IMG/VR virus record: IMGVR_UViG_2529292829_000010
Location: 1 to 33,790 of that record
Source of the DNA: a virus
Lineage: Duplodnaviria; Heunggongvirae; Uroviricota; Caudoviricetes
Direction: 5' to 3' (one strand)
Length of the DNA stretch: 33,790 nucleotides
In this document: positions 1-16,397 of the stretch, in pieces
Layout: each line of letters begins with the position of its first letter
How positions within the stretch are numbered: the stretch's first letter is position 1
Made by a program: the position numbers and the translations under genes
Notes under the pieces: generated by a model
Seen by the model: the letters and a program-made list of their open reading frames with translations, nothing else
Databases searched by the model: none
Told to the model about the DNA's origin: nothing

Positions 1-1020
1 CTACTTACTGACCACAAGCGGCAAATCCAGTGTTGGGGTGATTTTGGTTTTACGATCGTAAATCAACACCTGATTTTCTGTTTTGTGTCCACTGAAAATT
101 TGTTTGTCGCGACTGCTGCCTTCGTAATCTGAAATCCCTTTGGCTTTTATGTCATGGAAGTTGCATCCAAACGGAACGCCGGCTTTTTGCTCGGCTGCAC
201 GTTTAGCCTGATTCCACCAGTTGTTCAGCGTCTTGGCTATTACCTTCTCGCCTTTGGTTGTGTTGATCACATACTCGCATGTGCCGGAAGATACATTTCG
301 GGCTAACTGGATCGCCGTACGTAATCGCGGAGACCATTCCTTGATTTGTTTAGTGCCAGTCTTGTTTTGCTCAATGTAAATCCCTTTATCCATAATATCC
401 TGCCATTTCAGCTCGAGTACATCACCGAGCCTTGCCGCACAAAGATAGGATATCTCCATTGCAATACATAACTGTGGAATTGCTTCCGCATATATTGCAG
501 CATACTGTTCATCGGTGATGTAAACAGTACGGGCTTTAAGTGTGAATTTTCTGACTCCTTTGCATGGATTATTTTTTACATACCCACGCTCGTATCCCCA
601 TCCGTATATACGGCTCAGACTTGCCAGTTCATGGTTTGCCTGGGTCTTGCTCTCAAGTCCTCGCTTATCCATGAAAATTCTTACCTGTTCAATTTTTACA
701 TTATCAGCAAGCACTTTTCCGAATACTGCCAACAATGCCCTTTGATGTTGCCGATAATCTTTTTGGGTTCGGGGGGCCAGTTCTGTAAATGCAGGGGAGT
801 CCATAAACATGTGCCATAATTTAGCTACTGTCATTATGTTGTGGAGTTTTGCTTTTTCCAGCTCATAATTTTGCCAGACTTTAGCTATGCTGGTTTCCCG
901 CACTCTTCCGAGCCCTATAGTTCTTGTGCTTCCTTCGGGTTTCCATACGTAACTGTAACCATTCGATCTAACACGCGGTGGTAGTGCATTATCTTTTTTG
1001 TTTTTTCTTGGTCTTCCCAT
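1..1020 (-). CDS. int: Tyrosine-type site-specific integrase, 339 aa
   Basis: Complete ORF: ATG at 1018-1020, TAG stop at 1-3. C-terminal ...SGHKTENQVLIYDR resembles lambda Int ...LGHKSDTMASQYRD (catalytic His/Tyr region). Terminal position next to a xis-like ORF. Confidence 0.9.
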   Translation of the reverse strand: MGRPRKNKKDNALPPRVRSNGYSYVWKPEGSTRTIGLGRVRETSIAKVWQNYELEKAKLHNIMTVAKLWHMFMDSPAFTELAPRTQKDYRQHQRALLAVFGKVLADNVKIEQVRIFMDKRGLESKTQANHELASLSRIYGWGYERGYVKNNPCKGVRKFTLKARTVYITDEQYAAIYAEAIPQLCIAMEISYLCAARLGDVLELKWQDIMDKGIYIEQNKTGTKQIKEWSPRLRTAIQLARNVSSGTCEYVINTTKGEKVIAKTLNNWWNQAKRAAEQKAGVPFGCNFHDIKAKGISDYEGSSRDKQIFSGHKTENQVLIYDRKTKITPTLDLPLVVSK

Positions 1021-1240
1021 TGTTCAGCGCCTCAAAATCGGGTTCAGCGGAAACCAGTTCAGGTGCTTTTGGCATCGTAGTCAGTCCGTGTGGAATATCC
1101 CTGCGAAGAACTATTGGTTCGTTTTTAGGACCGATTACAAATGGGATACCGTGCAGCCTTAACTGGTGTTGCTGTTTTGTGTATCGCTCGTATTTCGTGA
1201 TCTCTTGAATCTCTGCTGGCGATAGAGTTAATTCGTACAT
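989..1240 (-). CDS. xis: Excisionase-like protein, 83 aa
   Basis: Small ORF directly upstream of int and overlapping its start by 32 nt. Starts MYELTL (lambda Xis starts MYLTLQ) and ends in a Lys-rich tail NGKTKKKQKR (lambda ...NGKKAKS). Confidence 0.6.
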   Translation of the reverse strand: MYELTLSPAEIQEITKYERYTKQQHQLRLHGIPFVIGPKNEPIVLRRDIPHGLTTMPKAPELVSAEPDFEALNNGKTKKKQKR

Positions 1241-1306: not shown

Positions 1307-3787
1307 TTAAAAATCAACCGGATTCGGGATCAGTTTTTGCCAGATTGCTGAAACGTATTTTGCCTGGTGACGGGCATCATCCAGCGCATTGTGGCGCACG
1401 CCTTCAAATGGAATAACGATTCTGGCATCAAAGTCGATTGTTTTTCCCAGCTCAACGATTGTGCGTACATCGCGATCGTTGTAGTAACGCCACGGGCAGG
1501 GGATCCCCTGCCGTTCGTATGAACGGCGCAAAATTGCGTTATCGAAAGTTGCACCATTACCCCATACCTGAACGAATTTTTCATCTGAGTATTCGTGGAT
1601 GAACTCCCGAAACCGCGAAAGGGCATCCTTCAGTTTTACCTGGTCTGTTAAAATGGCAGCTCTGGCTTCACTGGACTGCTTCAGCCACCATTCGATGGTT
1701 CCACCGTCAGGAACAGCCCCTGTATTCATTGCGTCAGTCAGACTGATAACGATATAAAATACTGGCCCGATTTCCCCTGTTTGTGGGTCGAAGAAAACCG
1801 CACCAATAACCACGATGGGCGCATTGGTGTTGGTTCCCATTGTTTCAAGGTCGATCATCAGGTGATACCACACTCTGCTGGTGGATGTGATAATGTGACG
1901 ACCGTTCACCGCAATTAAGGGAGCTGCCGTCTCGCCAGTTTCATTATCGCTGGCGTGGTCCTGAGCGCTGCCAGCATTCTCCTTGTGTGGATGTTCAGCG
2001 CCTTCCATTTCCTTCGGATCATTTTCCTGAACTTCAACCTGATTCTTGTCATCGAATGTTTCCTGGTATGTTGCGTCGCCCATCACCGCGCCACAATCAG
2101 GGCAGTTGCCGCCACCGATCTGACCGCAGGCGGTGCAGACTTTTTCCGCTTCCTGTTGTGCTACCGGTTCGGATTGTTTCGTTTCTGGCTCGTTTTGTTG
2201 CGTATTTGGGCTGTTTTGTTCCGCTTTCTGGTCGTTCTGTTCCGTTTCTTGCTGGTTCTGGTTCACAGTATCGCGGGTCTGGATCCCCTTAACCCATTTC
2301 GGATCATTCGGGTCGCTAATCCCTGCAACAAATTCACCACGTGATACTGCAAGCAGTTCATCGGCGTCAGGCTGGCTGATATTGGCTGCCTGCATAATTT
2401 TGTTTACTTCGTTAGCGGTAACTTTTACCGGCCCTGGTTGTGCGGTCGTGTCAGATGCACCAGTATTTTGTTGTGAACCTGAGTATGTACCGTTTTTGCG
2501 GGCGAAATATTCTTCTTTCGTGATTTCAGTAGCCCCTGCAGCCAGTGCCTTATCCAGACCAGAAAGTTTGTTTGCGCGACCGTATTTTTCGCCATCCTTG
2601 TCGGTGAAGAGGAAGTAGAACGGCCCCTCACGCTCTACAGATGGTTCGACTTCCACTTTGCATTCGGTTTTTTCGTTGTCCGGAATTGCCGTTTCCACTG
2701 CATCAGTTTCTGGTACTGGCGACGAGAGAGTATCAGTTGCGCTCTGATTTGTTCCTTCATCTTCAAACACGCCCTTTGTAGTCAGGTATTCAGTAATGTA
2801 TTTGTTCAGTGCCACAGGATCTTTGTGAATGTCGATCGGACGTTCACGGACAAGGCCAAAAATAGTCTGGCGGTCGTAGCGAAGGGCATCAGGCTGTTTG
2901 CGCATCGATGCCGAGATACGCTTCCAGTCTTCGCGGTCGTTGTCGATAACTTCATTTTTTGCCCAGCGATGGATGCTGCCGTCAATGTTTCCGGCATCCA
3001 CATCACCAGGCCAGAGAGCGTAGGCCAGTTCGTCATCCAGTGTTTTCCATGTCTGCTTGTATTCGCGATGAGTGGCAGCAATGACCGGGTTGATTTTTCC
3101 TGTTGAATTTTCAGTGTTCTGTTGATTGACTCTGGCGCGGGCAAGATCAACAACAGACGTGTATTTTCCGGTTTCCTTGCGTTCACCTTCGCGACGTTTT
3201 TTCCAGATGCGCATCTCTGCCTGAATTTCGGGCCATTTGGCACCAGGCTTACATTTATGCTTAACCCACCCGATGGCATGCAGCTTAAGCTCCGGATACA
3301 TGGCGTTAACTTCTGGCATTTTCATCAACGCTTCAACGATATGTCCGTCGAATGTTGCCATGTCTTCCTGCAACAATTCCTGTGCGCTAATAACCATATC
3401 AACGGTGATGTTTTCACATGTGTCGAACTTAACCATGACAGCGTTCTGTACTTCAGGGGCCAGCTTGTCAAAAGTGACGTTCATCGGATCTGATTCAGTC
3501 TCAACCGGAACAAAGGAAGCAGACTCCTCATCCCAGCGGTTTTCCTGCATATATTCAGCATCCCAGGAATCGAGGGCAGGGCGGGGTATACCGGGTTTAT
3601 CCTCGCAAACAAGAAATTTATAAGCGCAGTCCTGAGCAGCCGGATATTGCTCCAGGAATTGCCAGGTAAATTTGGCACGGGCGCGGCGTTCGTCACCGGC
3701 TTCAATGGCAGTGGCTACAGCAACTGCACCTTCTTCCTTTATTGCCTGTTCGTCCGGAATGGCAGCGCAAATAAAGACTTTACTCAT
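1307..3787 (-). CDS. Large early-left protein, 826 aa: unknown N-terminal domain, Cys4 zinc ribbon, acidic linker, C-terminal DnaQ-like DEDDh 3'-5' exonuclease
   Basis: ATG at 3785-3787 with GAGG upstream. Exo motifs in the C-terminus: MIDLETMG (Exo I), WGNGATFDNAIL (Exo II), HNALDDARHQAKY (Exo III). CTACGQIGGGNCPDCG zinc ribbon. Gln/Glu/Asn-rich low-complexity linker. Confidence 0.8.
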   Translation of the reverse strand: MSKVFICAAIPDEQAIKEEGAVAVATAIEAGDERRARAKFTWQFLEQYPAAQDCAYKFLVCEDKPGIPRPALDSWDAEYMQENRWDEESASFVPVETESDPMNVTFDKLAPEVQNAVMVKFDTCENITVDMVISAQELLQEDMATFDGHIVEALMKMPEVNAMYPELKLHAIGWVKHKCKPGAKWPEIQAEMRIWKKRREGERKETGKYTSVVDLARARVNQQNTENSTGKINPVIAATHREYKQTWKTLDDELAYALWPGDVDAGNIDGSIHRWAKNEVIDNDREDWKRISASMRKQPDALRYDRQTIFGLVRERPIDIHKDPVALNKYITEYLTTKGVFEDEGTNQSATDTLSSPVPETDAVETAIPDNEKTECKVEVEPSVEREGPFYFLFTDKDGEKYGRANKLSGLDKALAAGATEITKEEYFARKNGTYSGSQQNTGASDTTAQPGPVKVTANEVNKIMQAANISQPDADELLAVSRGEFVAGISDPNDPKWVKGIQTRDTVNQNQQETEQNDQKAEQNSPNTQQNEPETKQSEPVAQQEAEKVCTACGQIGGGNCPDCGAVMGDATYQETFDDKNQVEVQENDPKEMEGAEHPHKENAGSAQDHASDNETGETAAPLIAVNGRHIITSTSRVWYHLMIDLETMGTNTNAPIVVIGAVFFDPQTGEIGPVFYIVISLTDAMNTGAVPDGGTIEWWLKQSSEARAAILTDQVKLKDALSRFREFIHEYSDEKFVQVWGNGATFDNAILRRSYERQGIPCPWRYYNDRDVRTIVELGKTIDFDARIVIPFEGVRHNALDDARHQAKYVSAIWQKLIPNPVDF

Positions 3788-3866: not shown

Positions 3867-4070
3867 TTACGGCGCTGTTTTTAATCCTGCCGGGATTTCG
3901 TTATTATCCATGCGAATAACTTTCTCGACCAGATAACAGTTACCAGGAATTTTCTGTTCTGCTGCGGCAGCCATACATTCTTTCATTGAACCATATATAC
4001 CAGTAACCACATCAACAGGTTCGCCAGTATTAAGAAAAACAGTCAGAGTGAGGGCAACAGCAGTCTTCAT
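3867..4070 (-). CDS. Small membrane protein, 67 aa, YdfD-like by position
   Basis: ATG at 4068-4070 preceded by AAGGA; overlaps the dicB stop (ATGA). N-terminal hydrophobic segment MKTAVALTLTVFL. Identity to YdfD not verified. Confidence 0.55.
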   Translation of the reverse strand: MKTAVALTLTVFLNTGEPVDVVTGIYGSMKECMAAAAEQKIPGNCYLVEKVIRMDNNEIPAGLKTAP

Positions 4071-4255
4071 TGCCAGCGTCCTTTTTGCATCAGGCGTAAA
4101 CGGGCCAGCATTGAAACAATGCATATTTTATTTAATAACTCCCGTTCGTGTTTTCTCTTGTTAATGGCATCTTCAGTAAATACAGGGTTACTGATAGTGA
4201 CACCAATTTCAAAACAACCTTCAGACGTATTAACGTTTGGTAATAACGTTTCCAT
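4067..4255 (-). CDS. dicB: Cell-division inhibitor DicB, 62 aa
   Basis: ATG at 4253-4255 preceded by GAGGA. Protein METLLPNVNTSEGCFEIGVTISNPVFTEDAINKRKHERELLNKICIVSMLARLRLMQKGRWQ matches my recollection of E. coli DicB in length and sequence. Lies immediately downstream of a DicF-like RNA on the same strand. Confidence 0.8.
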   Translation of the reverse strand: METLLPNVNTSEGCFEIGVTISNPVFTEDAINKRKHERELLNKICIVSMLARLRLMQKGRWQ

Positions 4256-4424: not shown

Positions 4425-4482
4425 AAAAAGGGCGGCAGAGCAGTCACGGAGTAAAACTGATACCGCCAAACGTCACCAGAAA
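4425..4482 (-). ncRNA. dicF: DicF-like small regulatory RNA (ftsZ translation inhibitor)
   Basis: Minus-strand transcript 5'-UUUCUGGUGACGUUUGGCGGUAUCAGUUUUACUCCGUGACUGCUCUGCCGCCCUUUUU-3' matches my recollection of DicF, with a GC-rich 3' stem and U-run. Sits directly upstream of dicB, as in the Qin dicB operon. Confidence 0.75.
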
Positions 4483-4822: not shown

Positions 4823-5041
4823 CTAACGCGGGTATGTAATCATTCTGGCAATGCTTAATGCCGCTGCTTTTTCCAGATTGGTGATATCCTGCTCCAGAGC
4901 GGACATATTTTCAGCCTGCTTAGCCCTGGCTTCATTGGCCCATTTCAAATCCTGCGCTGCATTAATTTTCTGGCGCATCCACTCATAAAGTTCATCATCG
5001 GTATAGTCTGGCGCGATGATGACGGGTTCTCGTTTCTGCAT
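4823..5041 (-). CDS. Small early-left protein, 72 aa, YdfC-like by position and size
   Basis: Internal ATG at 5039-5041 preceded by AAGGAG. Protein MQKREPVIIAPDYTDDELYEWMRQKINAAQDLKWANEARAKQAENMSALEQDITNLEKAAALSIARMITYPR. The frame is open upstream, so the true start is unresolved. Confidence 0.5.
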   Translation of the reverse strand: MQKREPVIIAPDYTDDELYEWMRQKINAAQDLKWANEARAKQAENMSALEQDITNLEKAAALSIARMITYPR

Positions 5042-5560
5042 GTCGACTCCTTGTGGTTCGTGTTGCCTGCTTTTAACCACATCAGGCGAGGTGGTATCCT
5101 GAAAGCCGACCAAAGCTTTACGGATAAATAAGTTATGTTGCAACCACCAATAAATCCGCTTAAAAATATGAAAATTGATTACTGGTATAAAGCACTTACA
5201 GTTGTTGGTGCTGCGTTGTTTGTCTTTAATGGAACATCTTTTTTTGACAGATACCCCGCTGTTCCACTGGCTTTTTTGTCCTCCGGTATTTTCTTCACTG
5301 GCCTTGGAGAGTGGATCAATCACCCTCTCAGAGTGAGATTTATTGGTCCCGGAGCCGTTGCCCGGGGGCATAACCGTTCTCCGTGCACACTCGGCATTAT
5401 CTTCGATATATTGGGTGTCTGCCTGATTGTTACAGGAGTCGTCAAATTCTTCTGAAGAGAATCCACACACAGGGCATACAACCGGAATACGGCAAATGAT
5501 TTCACCCGGCTCGATGTGTGGGTACTCGCCATCAATTTTTTGTTGCTCCCGTATACCCAT
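4823..5560 (-). CDS. Alternative long reading of the same frame (246 codons) with a Cys-rich CPVCG N-terminus
   Basis: ATG at 5558-5560 with GAGG upstream is the first leftward ORF after the PL-like promoter. No stop until 4823. The central segment looks low-complexity and an antisense membrane-protein ORF overlaps at 5168-5455. Confidence 0.3.
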   Translation of the reverse strand: MGIREQQKIDGEYPHIEPGEIICRIPVVCPVCGFSSEEFDDSCNNQADTQYIEDNAECARRTVMPPGNGSGTNKSHSERVIDPLSKASEENTGGQKSQWNSGVSVKKRCSIKDKQRSTNNCKCFIPVINFHIFKRIYWWLQHNLFIRKALVGFQDTTSPDVVKSRQHEPQGVDMQKREPVIIAPDYTDDELYEWMRQKINAAQDLKWANEARAKQAENMSALEQDITNLEKAAALSIARMITYPR

Positions 5561-5741
5561 GTTGACCTCATTTCCCCTTAACGCCGGGGTAGCGGAACAA
5601 AAACCTGCTGCATAGTTATTAAAGTTGAACCCTGCCGTCATGTTCTTACGCCTCGGGCTGGCTACTTAACCCCTGACCACTGCCTGGTAACTCGAAGTAT
5701 TGCCCTGCATTCTGTGGGGCGGGGTGGGTTGGCATGCAATA

Positions 5742-5770
5742 AATCTAAAAGTATTTAGTTTTATAGTCAA
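5742..5770 (-). promoter_or_regulatory. PL-like leftward early promoter with overlapping palindromic operator
   Basis: On the minus strand: -35 TTGACT (5765-5770), 17-nt spacer, -10 TAGATT (5742-5747). Operator-like palindrome TCTAAAAGTATTTAG at 5744-5758, related to the PR operator. Confidence 0.5.
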
Positions 5771-5788: not shown

Positions 5789-5816
5789 TAAAAAAAAGGT
5801 CGGCATAACCGACCTT
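5789..5816 (-). terminator. Rho-independent terminator downstream of the repressor gene
   Basis: Minus-strand RNA AAGGUCGG-UUAUG-CCGACCUU followed by 8 U, located about 20 nt after the cI stop. Confidence 0.8.
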
Positions 5817-5837: not shown

Positions 5838-6485
5838 TTATAGGTTGAACTGTACACCTTTTGCTACGGCAACAATTTTACACTCTGGCGTAAGCAAGGA
5901 TGATTGATAGCGCGGATTGAGAGGACTTAAATACACAAGTTTTCCATCAATAACTAATTTTTTTATAGTCATAGACGGTTCATTTGTAAGAGGATCTGGA
6001 ACTATTACAGCGACGATACTGCCATTTTTATAACTTTCTCCTGGTCTTAGGATCACAGTGGCACCAACTGGGATACTTGGCGACCCTGAGGGGTTATGCA
6101 TAGTGTCATCAGGCATTGAAACGGCAAAATCACCTTCCACTACATCAAAGAATGTGGTGATCCTATCGACATTTCCCATTGTTTTCTCTCCTTCTAAGAT
6201 TAGGAAAGAAATCGCGTCACCCCACGAAAGGTAGGGGATCTTGGTGCCTGGATTGTTCTGCACAAAAGATAGTTCAGGAGACGATACTCCATACAGGAGA
6301 TAGGACTCAGTAGTTCCTAATGCTTGGGCTAACTTACTTAGAGCTTTGCTGCCGGGTTCGTTTAGATCTTTCTCCCAGTACCCTATAGTAACCCCAGTCA
6401 CGCCTGAAAGCTTACCCAGCTCTACTTGGGTGAGTCCCTTATCTTTTCTGAGTTTCTTAAGCCTGATGCCAAGGCTTTCCATCAT
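5838..6485 (-). CDS. cI: CI-type prophage repressor: HTH_XRE N-domain plus S24/LexA-like autopeptidase C-domain, 215 aa
   Basis: HTH LTQVELGKLSGVTGVTIGYWE. C-domain AVSMPDDT and TIKKLVIDGKLVYLSPLNPRY parallel lambda CI NSMTAPT and [21 protein letters not shown] (Ser/Lys dyad). Divergent from the cro-like gene. Confidence 0.9.
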   Translation of the reverse strand: MMESLGIRLKKLRKDKGLTQVELGKLSGVTGVTIGYWEKDLNEPGSKALSKLAQALGTTESYLLYGVSSPELSFVQNNPGTKIPYLSWGDAISFLILEGEKTMGNVDRITTFFDVVEGDFAVSMPDDTMHNPSGSPSIPVGATVILRPGESYKNGSIVAVIVPDPLTNEPSMTIKKLVIDGKLVYLSPLNPRYQSSLLTPECKIVAVAKGVQFNL

Positions 6486-10586: not shown

Positions 10587-11273
10587 ATGACCACAATAAA
10601 TACGTTTATGACAGTTGCTGATTTCAAACGGCCTAAATTGGAGCTCCCAAACGGGGCAAACAAACTACTACTGCACTCTTGCTGTGCTCCATGTTCCGGT
10701 GAAGTGATGGAGGCGCTTCAGGCCTCGGGAATCGACTACACCATCTTTTTCTACAACCCGAACATTCATCCTCAGAAAGAGTATTTAATTCGTAAGGATG
10801 AGAATATTCGCTTTGCTGAACAACACGGCGTGCAGTTTATCGATGCTGATTACGACACAGACAACTGGTTTGAACGTGCCAAAGGAATGGAATGGGAGCC
10901 CGAGAGGGGGATCCGTTGTACCATGTGTTTTGACATGCGTTTTGAGCGGACAGCGTTGTACGCTGCTGAAAATGGTTTCAGTGTGATCAGCAGTTCGCTG
11001 GGCATTTCACGCTGGAAAAATATGCAGCAGGTTAACGACTGTGGGCGGCGAGCCGTCGCGCATTATCCGGGAATGGTGTACTGGGATTATAACTGGCGCA
11101 AGCAGGGCGGCTCGTCCCGTATGATTGAAATCAGCAAGCGCGAAAAATTCTATCAGCAGGAATATTGTGGCTGTGTGTATTCTCTGCGCGATACCAATCT
11201 ACACCGCAAATCTCAGGGACGCCCTCTTATCAAAATTGGTCAACTCCACTACGGTAAAGAAGAGAAGGAGTGA
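10587..11273 (+). CDS. QueH-like (DUF208) epoxyqueuosine reductase family protein, 228 aa
   Basis: Motif [11 protein letters not shown] near the N-terminus, plus RCTMCFD and YCGCVY Cys clusters, as I recall for DUF208/QueH. Preceded by two stem-loops and an AT-rich leader. Weak SD, so start is uncertain. Confidence 0.7.
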
Positions 11274-11399
11274 TTTTATGGATCACCTTTCTGATTGATT
11301 TCATATTGGCGAGGTAGCAGGAGTTAAGTAGAATTGCTGCGGGTGCTTGAGGCTATCTGTCTCAGGCATGAACACCAAAAGGCAGATAGAGAAAAGCCC

Positions 11400-11462
11400 C
11401 AGTTAACATTACGCGTCCTGCAAGACGCTTAACATTAATCTGAGGCCATATCTATGCGACAC
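11400..11462 (-). ncRNA. Putative Sok-like antisense RNA
   Basis: Minus-strand promoter-like TTGACC (plus 11491-11496) with a weak -10 near 11466-11471. Antisense to the mok-like start at 11454. Hairpin GCGUCUUGCAGGACGC (plus 11412-11427) near the predicted 3' end. Boundaries inferred. Confidence 0.35.
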
Positions 11463-11513
11463 ATAGAGATTAGCCTCTTACGGACCGAAAGGTCAAGGAG
11501 AAGCAGGCTATGA
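11454..11513 (+). CDS. mok-like leader ORF, 19 codons, translationally coupled to hok
   Basis: ATG at 11454; its TGA stop (11511-11513) overlaps the hok ATG (11510-11512). Confidence 0.35.
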   Translation: MRHIEISLLRTERSRRSRL

Positions 11514-13168: not shown

Positions 13169-13540
13169 ATGCGTATAGAGTTTGTTTTGCCTTACCCGCC
13201 AACGGTGAACACCTACTGGCGACGTCGTGGCAGTACATATTTTGTATCAAAAGCCGGTGAGCGTTATCGCCGTGATGTGGCGCTCATTGTTCGCCAGCAG
13301 CGACTGAAATTAAATCTGTCCGGAAGGCTAGCGATCAGGATTATTGTGGAGCCACCGGATAAGCGCCGTCGTGACCTGGACAATATCCTGAAAGCGCCAC
13401 TGGATGCACTGACACATGCGGGACTGCTTATCGACGACGAGCAGTTTGATGAAATTAATATTGTGCGCAGTCAGCTTGTACCTGGTGGTCGGCTGGGCGT
13501 GAAGATTTACGAAATTACAGGTGGTAACGATGGCACGTGA
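13169..13540 (+). CDS. rusA: Holliday junction resolvase RusA, 123 aa
   Basis: [31 protein letters not shown] closely parallels E. coli RusA [31 protein letters not shown]. AGAGG RBS. Confidence 0.9.
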
Positions 13541-15048: not shown

Positions 15049-16098
15049 ATGGCTAATACTGTAAAAATATCCAGTTGTGAGTTAATCAACGCTGATTGTC
15101 TGGAATTTATCCAGACCTTACCGGAAAATTCTGTCGATCTGATAGTCACAGACCCGCCATACTTTAAAGTGAAGCCCGAGGGCTGGGATAACCAGTGGAA
15201 GGGCGACGATGATTACCTGAAATGGCTGAATCAGTGTCTGGCGCAGTTCTGGCGGGTACTGAAGCCCGCAGGAAGTCTTTACCTGTTCTGTGGTCATCGC
15301 CTGGCATCTGACACCGAAATCATGATGCGTCAGCGCTTTAATGTGCTGAACCACATTATCTGGGCGAAGCCGTCAGGGCGCTGGAACGGGTGCAACAAGG
15401 AAAGCCTGCGGGCGTATTTCCCGGCAACAGAGCGCATTCTGTTTGCAGAACATTATCAGGGGCCATACCAGCCCAAAAATGACGGCTATGAGGCAAAGGG
15501 GCGTGAGCTAAAACAGCACGTCATGGCCCCGCTGATTTCTTACTTTCGTGATGCGCGTGAATCACTGGGAATAACGTCAAAACAGATAGCGGAAGCCACC
15601 GGAAAGAAAAACATGGCTTCGCACTGGTTTGGTACCAGTCAGTGGCAATTACCGAACGAGGGTGATTACAACAAATTGCAGGCGTTGTTTGCGCGTGTTG
15701 CGGCAGAAAAGCATCAGCGAGGGGAACTGGAAAAGCCACACCACCAGCTGGTCAGCACATACAGTGAACTGAACCGGCAATATGCCAGCCTGCTGGAAGA
15801 GTATAAATCTTTGCGGCGTTATTTTTCCGTATCGGCTGCCGTTCCGTATACGGATGTCTGGACGCATAAATCCGTGCAGTTTTATCCGGGCAAACATCCC
15901 TGTGAAAAACCGGCAGATATGTTGCGGCAGATAATTGAGGCCAGCAGTCACCCTGGTGATTTGGTTGCGGATTTTTTTATGGGTTCAGGTTCAACGGTAA
16001 AAGCGGCGATGGCACTGGGGCGTTGTGCGATTGGTGTTGAGCTGGAGACCGGACGTTTTGAACAGACAGTCAGGGAAGTTCAGGATTTAATCGTTTGA
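15049..16098 (+). CDS. DNA methyltransferase, beta-class amino-MTase (probably N6-adenine), 349 aa
   Basis: Motif IV IVTDPPYF near the N-terminus and motif I DFFMGSGST near the C-terminus (IV-TRD-I order). No adjacent restriction endonuclease. Confidence 0.85.
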   Translation: MANTVKISSCELINADCLEFIQTLPENSVDLIVTDPPYFKVKPEGWDNQWKGDDDYLKWLNQCLAQFWRVLKPAGSLYLFCGHRLASDTEIMMRQRFNVLNHIIWAKPSGRWNGCNKESLRAYFPATERILFAEHYQGPYQPKNDGYEAKGRELKQHVMAPLISYFRDARESLGITSKQIAEATGKKNMASHWFGTSQWQLPNEGDYNKLQALFARVAAEKHQRGELEKPHHQLVSTYSELNRQYASLLEEYKSLRRYFSVSAAVPYTDVWTHKSVQFYPGKHPCEKPADMLRQIIEASSHPGDLVADFFMGSGSTVKAAMALGRCAIGVELETGRFEQTVREVQDLIV

Positions 16099-16148
16099 AA
16101 CGGATGAGATTGCAGAATTAATTACGCACCATTATTATTCTGCTCCCG

Positions 16149-16224
16149 GCCCTTTAGCTCAGTGGTGAGAGCGAGCGACTCATAATCGCCAGGTCGCTGG
16201 TTCAAATCCAGCAAGGGCCACCAT
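16149..16224 (+). tRNA. tRNA-Ile2 (anticodon CAU, lysidine type; ileZ/ileX-like)
   Basis: Cloverleaf: acceptor GGCCCTT/AAGGGCC, D-arm GCTC-AGTGGTGA-GAGC, anticodon loop CUCAUAA (CAT at 16182-16184), T-loop TTCAAAT, encoded CCA. Close to E. coli ileX as I recall it. Confidence 0.85.
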
Positions 16225-16231
16225 CACATAC

Positions 16232-16305
16232 CGCCATTAGCTCATCGACAGAGAGTGCCAGCTTTCGAAACTGGCTGTGTGGGGCTCGGGTCCCCGATGG
16301 CAATC
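16232..16305 (+). tRNA. Degenerate tRNA-like element (possible pseudo-tRNA, Arg-like UCG)
   Basis: tRNA-like arms, but the D-loop lacks GG, the anticodon stem GCCAG/CTGGC encloses a 9-nt loop CTTTCGAAA, the T-loop is CTCGGGT (no A58), the acceptor pairing is imperfect and there is no CCA. Confidence 0.35.
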
Positions 16306-16320
16306 TATTATCTGCATTAT

Positions 16321-16397
16321 GCGTTGTTAGCTCAGCCGGACAGAGCAATTGCCTTCTAAGCAATCGGTCACTGGTTCGAATCCAGTACAACGCGCCA
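16321..16397 (+). tRNA. tRNA-Arg (anticodon UCU, decodes AGA; argO-like)
   Basis: Acceptor GCGTTGT/ACAACGC, anticodon stem ATTGC/GCAAT with loop CTTCTAA (TCT at 16355-16357), T-loop TTCGAAT, encoded CCA. Confidence 0.85.

Follow-up and report, generated by a model that had tools for sequence, protein, structure and literature searches.

A YdfE-type prophage protein combines a RecE-like scaffold with a predicted DEDDh 3'-5' exonuclease domain

We analysed a 33,790-nucleotide stretch of viral DNA (IMG/VR record IMGVR_UViG_2529292829_000010, Caudoviricetes; hereafter the window), whose left end carries a large early gene. The list of open reading frames (ORFs) and their translations shows a complete coding sequence at 1307..3787 on the minus strand, which starts with ATG, has a GAGG 9 nt 5' of this start, and encodes 826 residues. 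An earlier note on this DNA had placed an early gene of 826 codons at this position; the ORF coincides with it exactly, and a protein 100% identical to its product (P0001) is recorded on 37 E. coli contigs. PHROG 2082, labelled 'exonuclease', matched over the full length of the protein. From the ORF, its translation, the PHROG match and the identical E. coli protein, we identify 1307..3787 as an intact coding sequence for a large exonuclease of the YdfE type. The motifs claimed in the note could all be located in the translation, with DLET at residues 646-649, WGNGATFDNAIL at 742-753, HNALDDARH at 799-807, and the Cys4 zinc ribbon CTACGQIGGGNCPDCG at 551-566. The gene is already known: identical proteins are public, PGAP names them "3'-5' exonuclease", and Pfam holds models, YdfE_N and YdfE_C, for the family.

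The C-terminal part of the protein (residues 642-816; 1340..1864, minus strand) was matched by Pfam PF16473, the Rv2179c-like 3'-5' exoribonuclease family, with an E-value of 3.7e-69, and the match spans profile positions 2-177 of 177. The score of 232.4 bits against a curated cut-off of 27 bits, together with the identical protein on so many contigs, places the observation far beyond chance. The general RNase_T model matched the same domain weakly in the Pfam scan. When the Protein Data Bank (PDB) was searched with phmmer, T4 DexA (8KEL and 8KEN) provided the sole solved structures recovered by sequence (E = 5e-8), and Foldseek with the AlphaFold model also returned DexA 8KEL as top match (E = 2e-5, probability 1.0), followed by Orn, REXO2, ERI and ExoI. 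DexA, the best match among solved structures by both sequence and fold, carries the same DEDDh catalytic set and is about 28% identical to the C-terminal domain, but is a stand-alone protein of 227 residues with extra loops. The predicted catalytic residues D646, E648, D749, H799 and D804 do not vary among 120 close homologues and hardly vary among 12 distant ones; we take them to represent the canonical DnaQ pattern of Exo I (DxE), Exo II (D) and Exo III (Hx4D). By profile, by catalytic residues and by the RNase H-like fold of the model, this is a PF16473 domain with predicted 3'-5' exonuclease activity, and the DEDD-type assignment made in the note can be given more exactly as Rv2179c/DexA-like.

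The N-terminal region of about 330 residues, which the note had considered unplaceable, is named by newer Pfam models: precomputed hits on the identical protein assign the N-terminal 345 residues to YdfE_N (PF27430) and YdfE_C (PF27432). YdfE_N (residues 1-215; 3143..3787; this and all further parts of the gene are on the minus strand) comprises an alpha/beta N-terminal lobe and then a helical lobe. YdfE_C (residues 240-345; 2753..3070) is a helical domain with similarity to RecE by BLASTP, and AlphaFold2 modelled it with a predicted local distance difference test score (pLDDT) of 93-98. Residues 341-640 have a net charge of -30 and are enriched in Gln, Asn and Glu; here a beta-hairpin/helix mini-domain (residues 386-436; 2480..2632; pLDDT 92-96) lies between disordered linkers, and the zinc ribbon (2090..2137) was modelled with a pLDDT of about 70.

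Much of this non-catalytic region resembles RecE. Residues 262-625 align by BLASTP with RecE 278-591 (E = 5e-60), residues 262-345 being the part that aligns from RecE residue 278 onwards. Over residues 470-625 (1913..2380), which contain the Gln/Asn/Glu-rich linker and the zinc ribbon, 99 of 156 positions (63%) are identical to RecE 445-591, and identity drops to 1 of 15 past residue 625. The ribbon itself shares 13 of its 16 residues with RecE 517-532; it is kept in 119 of 120 close homologues and missing in more distant DEDDh-bearing relatives. The mini-domain is absent from Rac RecE and found in other family members. The note had thus been right about the presence of the ribbon and the acidic linker, but had overlooked the RecE homology that covers both.

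In RecE, the nuclease domain comprises residues 564-866, and the N-terminus is described as 'of unknown function' (PMC11611040). The similarity to RecE ends at residue 625/626 of the YdfE-type protein, where the RecE nuclease domain begins. For RecE 600-866 no significant match was obtained, the nearest being a 40-residue overlap with E of about 0.1 by BLASTP (1.6 by tblastn) and another with E of 7. The NCBIfam RecE equivalog NF007259 scored 273 bits against a cut-off of 1269, with model positions 260-603 alone matched. As judged from sequence, the protein consists of a RecE-type scaffold that bears, instead of the PD-(D/E)XK head, a DEDDh head whose predicted polarity is the opposite. RecE of the Rac prophage is likewise a large early-left lambdoid protein of similar size, with its catalytic domain at the C-terminus after a long non-catalytic region, and it has the helical domain, the Gln/Glu-rich linker and the Cys4 zinc ribbon in common with the 826-residue protein. 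The two differ in their heads, which are PD-(D/E)XK (5'-3') in RecE and DEDDh (predicted 3'-5') here, and in the first 215 residues, which are YdfE_N and unlike the RecE N-terminus.

Residues 1-256 are 96% identical to the product of the K-12 pseudogene ydfE (b1577) of Qin, which is cut by IS2E after codon 256 and lacks the RecE-like middle, the zinc ribbon and the exonuclease domain. Both genes occupy the same slot after dicF, dicB and ydfD, and the order dicB, ydfD, ydfE-type gene, xis, int is the same as in Qin, which bears out the suggestion in the note that the gene is an intact version of Qin ydfE. On the minus strand, the gene immediately upstream in the operon is ydfD-like (DUF1482, 67 residues; 3867..4070), as supported by PHROG 1092, by PF07358 in identical loci and by the Qin order. 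It is preceded by dicB (62 residues; 4067..4255; PHROG 1251, with PF05358 DicB in identical loci) and by the DicF small RNA (4430..4481; Rfam RF00039, 76.7 bits, E = 1.9e-15). Directly downstream of the ydfE-type gene lies the excisionase gene (DUF4224; 989..1240; PHROG 1266, PF13986), followed by the tyrosine integrase gene (1..1020) at the prophage end adjoining yccA, beside which the prophage is located in E. coli. A CI/LexA-type repressor (helix-turn-helix and Peptidase_S24; 5838..6485) was assigned from HTH_3 and Peptidase_S24 matches in identical loci and from the RefSeq annotation of related loci. After the repressor gene, a consensus scan alone marked a terminator-like hairpin at 5796-5816, and the same scan, with the analogy to dicBp, points to a promoter-like site at 5742-5770 as the candidate dicBp/pL equivalent for the operon that ends in the ydfE-type gene, xis and int; these features, too, are on the minus strand. 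Beyond the repressor, cro, a YdaT-like gene, O and P are on the opposite strand. In Qin, dicBp is repressed by DicA (PMC10448788). The consensus scan showed no separate promoter before the ydfE-type gene. Within a lambdoid early-left operon of the Qin/DicB type, composed of repressor, promoter, ydfC, DicF, dicB, ydfD, ydfE-type gene, xis and int, the ydfE-type gene is the last of the cargo genes.

In the ydfC region of this operon, a 272-residue ORF (4823-5641, minus strand) is unlikely to be a single gene: its match to YdfC (phrog_1744) is confined to the last 72 residues, and its middle is of low complexity and matches a PHROG of unknown function. An antisense ORF (5135-5455, plus strand) encodes 106 hydrophobic, membrane-like residues with no family match, and gene callers disagree over 4823-5641 among identical loci.

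No annealase accompanies the gene. When all early ORFs of 110 residues or more and the small early-left ORFs were scanned with Pfam and PHROG, no RecT, Redbeta or Erf was detected; the matches returned for the early ORFs were a replication initiator, a P-like helicase loader, DUF1627, DUF977, QueH, DUF968/HNH, RusA, Q and a methylase. When the six frames of the window were searched by tblastn with RecT, Bet, lambda Exo, Gam and Erf, nothing scored better than E = 0.1, and a hidden annealase of a recognisable family is excluded on either strand by the scans and the translated search. As far as homologues of lambda Exo, the RecE C-terminal domain, RecT, Bet and Erf can be recognised, the window encodes no two-component recombinase of a 5'-3' exonuclease and a single-strand annealing protein (SSAP).

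We ran the same tblastn panel on three sets of 80 IMG/VR loci; loci within each set are closely related, so the counts that follow are not independent. Around large DEDDh-type genes, an annealase, SSB, Gam or Abc2 was found in 0/80 loci, while DicB was present in 68 and YdfD in 69. In contrast, RecT was present in all 80 loci whose protein has the RecE-type C-terminal domain, matching the adjacent recT of RecE loci. Loci with a stand-alone 182-residue homologue of the DEDDh domain (the mEpX2 type) carried Erf in 73/80, SSB in 76/80 and Abc2 in 80/80. RecT was also not found beside two relatives that combine a RecE-type N-terminus with a DEDDh head. The systematic absence of an annealase is the rule for the large DEDDh gene type and no peculiarity of this window; the note was correct that no RecT/Redbeta/Erf-like gene is present.

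The stand-alone homologue of phage mEpX2 is 58-60% identical to residues 640-826, has the same motifs, and is likewise an early-left lambdoid gene, but it lacks the scaffold. Its gene is flanked by SSB and Abc2, with Erf a short way upstream (locus L008, 5772-7856). At the positions of DexA F151/W152 and R168-M170 it has Trp-Trp and Arg-Asp-Met. Loci L100-L179 and L008 show a conserved lambdoid module of Erf, SSB, the 182-residue DEDDh exonuclease and Abc2 (anti-RecBCD). This conservation makes a 3'-5' DEDDh exonuclease a regular member of an Erf-type recombination module. The large form has no such neighbours, and the argument for a link to recombination is therefore carried by the stand-alone homologue and by the RecE scaffold. 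The contrast between a large form that is consistently without annealase and a stand-alone cousin inside an Erf/SSB/Abc2 module is in itself worth noting.

We give about even chances to the reading that the YdfE-type protein is a lytic-cycle exonuclease that would process the 3' ends of phage or host DNA. A DNA substrate is favoured because DexA and the DexA homologue EcD are DNases, because the closest phage homologue belongs to the Erf/SSB/Abc2 module, and because the scaffold is that of a DNA exonuclease. Once the repressor is lifted, the protein would be made together with DicB and YdfD, and its DEDDh domain would probably dimerise as in DexA and Orn. Two-metal catalysis by D646, E648, D749 and D804, with H799 as general base, would then remove nucleotides from free DNA 3' ends, and the RecE-like scaffold may guide the DEDDh head to the partner or DNA structure that is recognised by the RecE N-terminus. 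Because 3' tails cannot arise through the action of a 3'-5' enzyme, trimming of 3' tails or flaps, or degradation of linear DNA, during lytic growth appears likelier than initiation of recombination. Without an annealase of its own, the phage might rely on recombination proteins of the host or of co-resident prophages.

Several points weigh against this proposal. The 3' tails used by annealases and RecA are not produced by a 3'-5' exonuclease, and a recombination-initiating role is not obvious. The large form adjoins an annealase, SSB or Abc2 in none of the 80 loci, and the loci compared are close relatives, not independent samples. The N-terminal fold provided no functional clue, the AlphaFold2 model has low confidence at residues 769-805, and our literature search found no functional study of the protein. 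Finally, Pfam describes PF16473 as a 3'-5' exoribonuclease domain, with a name taken from an exoribonuclease, and many copies of the protein bear the NCBI name '3'-5' exoribonuclease'.

Both of these labels would fit a 3'-5' exoribonuclease or oligonucleotidase like Rv2179c or oligoribonuclease, acting on transcripts, small RNAs, nanoRNAs or linear signalling oligonucleotides in phage development. Rv2179c of Mycobacterium tuberculosis, the founder of PF16473 and an exoribonuclease by the Pfam description, is a single-domain bacterial protein of the same Pfam family, and Orn and REXO2 are the fold matches that come next after DexA. In the supplement of the DexA paper, REXO2 H163/Y164 are aligned with DexA F151/W152; the YdfE-type protein has Tyr768/Tyr769 there and is REXO2-like at that pair. 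We nevertheless consider an RNA substrate improbable: DexA, the closest characterised relative, is a DNase, as is EcD, and Rv2179c itself was not recovered in the PDB sequence search at E-values up to 1. The location of the closest phage homologue, flanked by SSB and Abc2 shortly after Erf, and the DNA-exonuclease origin of the scaffold also argue for DNA.

The kinship with DexA raises another explanation, namely that the protein serves inter-phage exclusion or anti-phage defence as an 'HREX'-type nuclease that selectively degrades modified DNA, such as the 5-hydroxymethylcytosine (5hmC) DNA of T-even phages, as proposed for EcD. Kang et al. (2025; PMC12153337) reported degradation of T4 DNA and protection of E. 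coli by plasmid-borne EcD, a DNA exonuclease and 'HREX' homologue of DexA. EcD belongs to the same DexA/Rv2179c-like family as the C-terminal domain, but stands alone and differs in its specificity residues. DicB, encoded in the same operon, is reported as protective against some phages (PMC6832061). HREX proteins are defined by an Ala in place of DexA D90, the Asp that forms the tetramer, and by retention of the 5hmC-recognition residues W152 and D169 (PMC12153337). The DexA residues proposed for tetramer formation or 5hmC recognition are partly kept in the 826-residue protein (K718 and D721, Y769, I790), which has Asp721 at D90, where EcD has Ala, Tyr769 at W152 and Ile790 at D169, and thus differs from HREX at all three positions. 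In close homologues, the position of W152 is His in 82 of 120 and that of D169 is Thr in most. A 189-residue protein that fits the EcD primers and has Ala78 is just 36% or so identical to the C-terminal domain. Moreover, the ydfE-type gene belongs to a lytic operon under repressor control and showed no separate promoter, and a defence role would leave the RecE scaffold unexplained. A search for known defence systems with PADLOC yielded only a generic CRISPR-associated DEDDh model (E = 1.9e-5), and assignment to a known system was rejected. A defence function of this kind seems unlikely to us.

The 189-residue DexA-like protein (MIDTETLGNGPDAA...TTPFLNI) occurs in loci L184, L189, L199, L200, L202 and L205, where it agrees exactly with the published forward primer for EcD and carries Ala at position 78, as described for EcD. 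The published EcD reverse primer differs from the contigs of these loci by one extra A near the stop codon.

To gauge conservation, we measured the ratio of non-synonymous to synonymous substitution rates (dN/dS) against two relatives. It was 0.06-0.11 for residues 1-215, about 0.2 for residues 216-345, 0.03-0.14 for the mini-domain (386-436) and 0.16-0.36 for residues 641-826, and about 0.2 overall; the linkers gave 0.75-1.24 against phage Tritos (0.75 for linker residues 346-385). Purifying selection acts on the ydfE-type gene. Of 80 related viral loci, 73 keep an ORF of at least 700 residues, and the gene is also carried by phages that have been isolated, among them Evi, Tritos and mEp460_ev081. 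Among 5,426 complete E. coli genomes, a match was found in 4,799, with coverage of at least 80% in 3,525 and up to 10 places per genome.

These data bear on whether the gene could be a decaying or selfish remnant without current function, carried along by prophage mosaicism. The K-12 copy is indeed an IS2-cut pseudogene, a few of the 80 viral loci have truncated ORFs, and about a quarter of the matching genomes contain partial copies alone. Against this, dN/dS reaches values down to 0.03 in folded domains, none of the five catalytic residues varies among the 120 homologues, and the long ORF persists in most loci and in isolated phages, so that we regard decay as highly improbable.

Synonymous divergence varies along the gene. 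Against Tritos (locus L002), dS was 1.06 in the C-terminal domain and 0.2 at the N-terminus, about a five-fold variation, and a 126-bp stretch at about 2240-2365 of the window is 90.5% identical to recE DNA (hit H112). This variation and the recE-like piece suggest that the gene has undergone internal recombination and has exchanged DNA with recE.

Labels of the gene in E. coli genomes include "exonuclease", "3'-5' exonuclease" and "3'-5' exoribonuclease domain-containing protein". Phage records (for example OV696610 of Tritos, PV340562 and ON470583) often read 'exodeoxyribonuclease VIII' or 'exonuclease VIII, ds DNA exonuclease', though the RecE catalytic domain is absent. The 'exodeoxyribonuclease VIII' label seems to stem from the shared non-catalytic region. 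It is worth recording that the commonest lambdoid-prophage "exonuclease" of E. coli, often mislabelled, is a RecE scaffold joined to a nuclease of predicted opposite polarity, which matters for annotation and for judging claims that E. coli DexA homologues are defence genes.

We then asked in what company the N-terminal modules occur, using residues 1-346 as query in an exhaustive phmmer search of 1.84 billion proteins. Only 180 representatives were recovered, all of the same phage family, and no remote relatives outside it. According to a BLAST module table, long representatives begin with either a YdfE_N-type or a RecE-N-type N-terminus, and the shared helical domain can come after either one. 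The C-termini were DEDDh in 12 representatives, RecE-type PD-(D/E)XK in 13, a third type that is possibly Rad52-like in about 20, and a fourth type in about 10, so that the YdfE_C module is found with DEDDh, PD-(D/E)XK or other C-termini. Pfam agreed in 10 cases for DEDDh and in 13 for the PDDEXK family DUF3799; Pfam Exonuc_VIII (PF06630), which matched 22 of 59 relatives, does not count catalytic domains, as the model also covers the RecE N-terminus.

With considerable reservation, we suggest that the RecE/YdfE N-terminal scaffold could be a general DNA-end platform on which lambdoid phages mount a 5'-3' PD-(D/E)XK nuclease, a 3'-5' DEDDh nuclease or possibly a Rad52-like annealase, the DEDDh version, commonest in E. 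coli, then providing end processing of opposite polarity that is independent of an annealase. If true, the pathway of the DEDDh version would have a purpose of its own, for example control of linear DNA, countering of host defence, or phage competition. The family offers a testable handle on the job of the long N-terminal region of RecE and on DNA-end handling in lambdoid phages without a recombinase of their own.

The third C-terminal type was found in about 20 relatives (P0131, P0140, P0158, P0179 and others), which have YdfE_N and YdfE_C followed by a conserved domain of 270 residues. Its motif, KKSLTDAxKKALSxLGFSADVWLGLYD, resembles Rad52/Sak-type annealases. The Pfam model Rad52_Rad22 matched it below the cut-off (E = 0.0046), a profile search of the PDB found nothing, and hhalign against P22 Erf and mEpX2 Erf was non-significant, though the expected motif was aligned nonetheless. 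PHROG labels these relatives 'exonuclease' (phrog_2489, phrog_7838). In two such loci (L180, 5650-7986, and L181, 6001-8148) the gene that comes next is Sipho_Gp157; L180 also has a weak homologue of Gam immediately upstream.

Elsewhere in the window, several plus-strand features were recorded. A 228-residue early-right ORF (10587-11273) matched Pfam QueH (epoxyqueuosine reductase; E = 1.6e-65), which is unexpected in a lambdoid nin-type region. Nearby, Rfam detected the sok antitoxin RNA (11341-11512, 106.7 bits), and a HOK_GEF toxin gene is called beside QueH in identical loci, indicating a hok/sok module within the prophage. Upstream of the lysis genes, the interval 15049-16397 holds an N6/N4 DNA methylase gene (349 residues) and, after it, tRNA-Met (cat) and tRNA-Arg (tct). 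The sole other recombination-related function detected in the window was a RusA-like Holliday junction resolvase (13169-13540).

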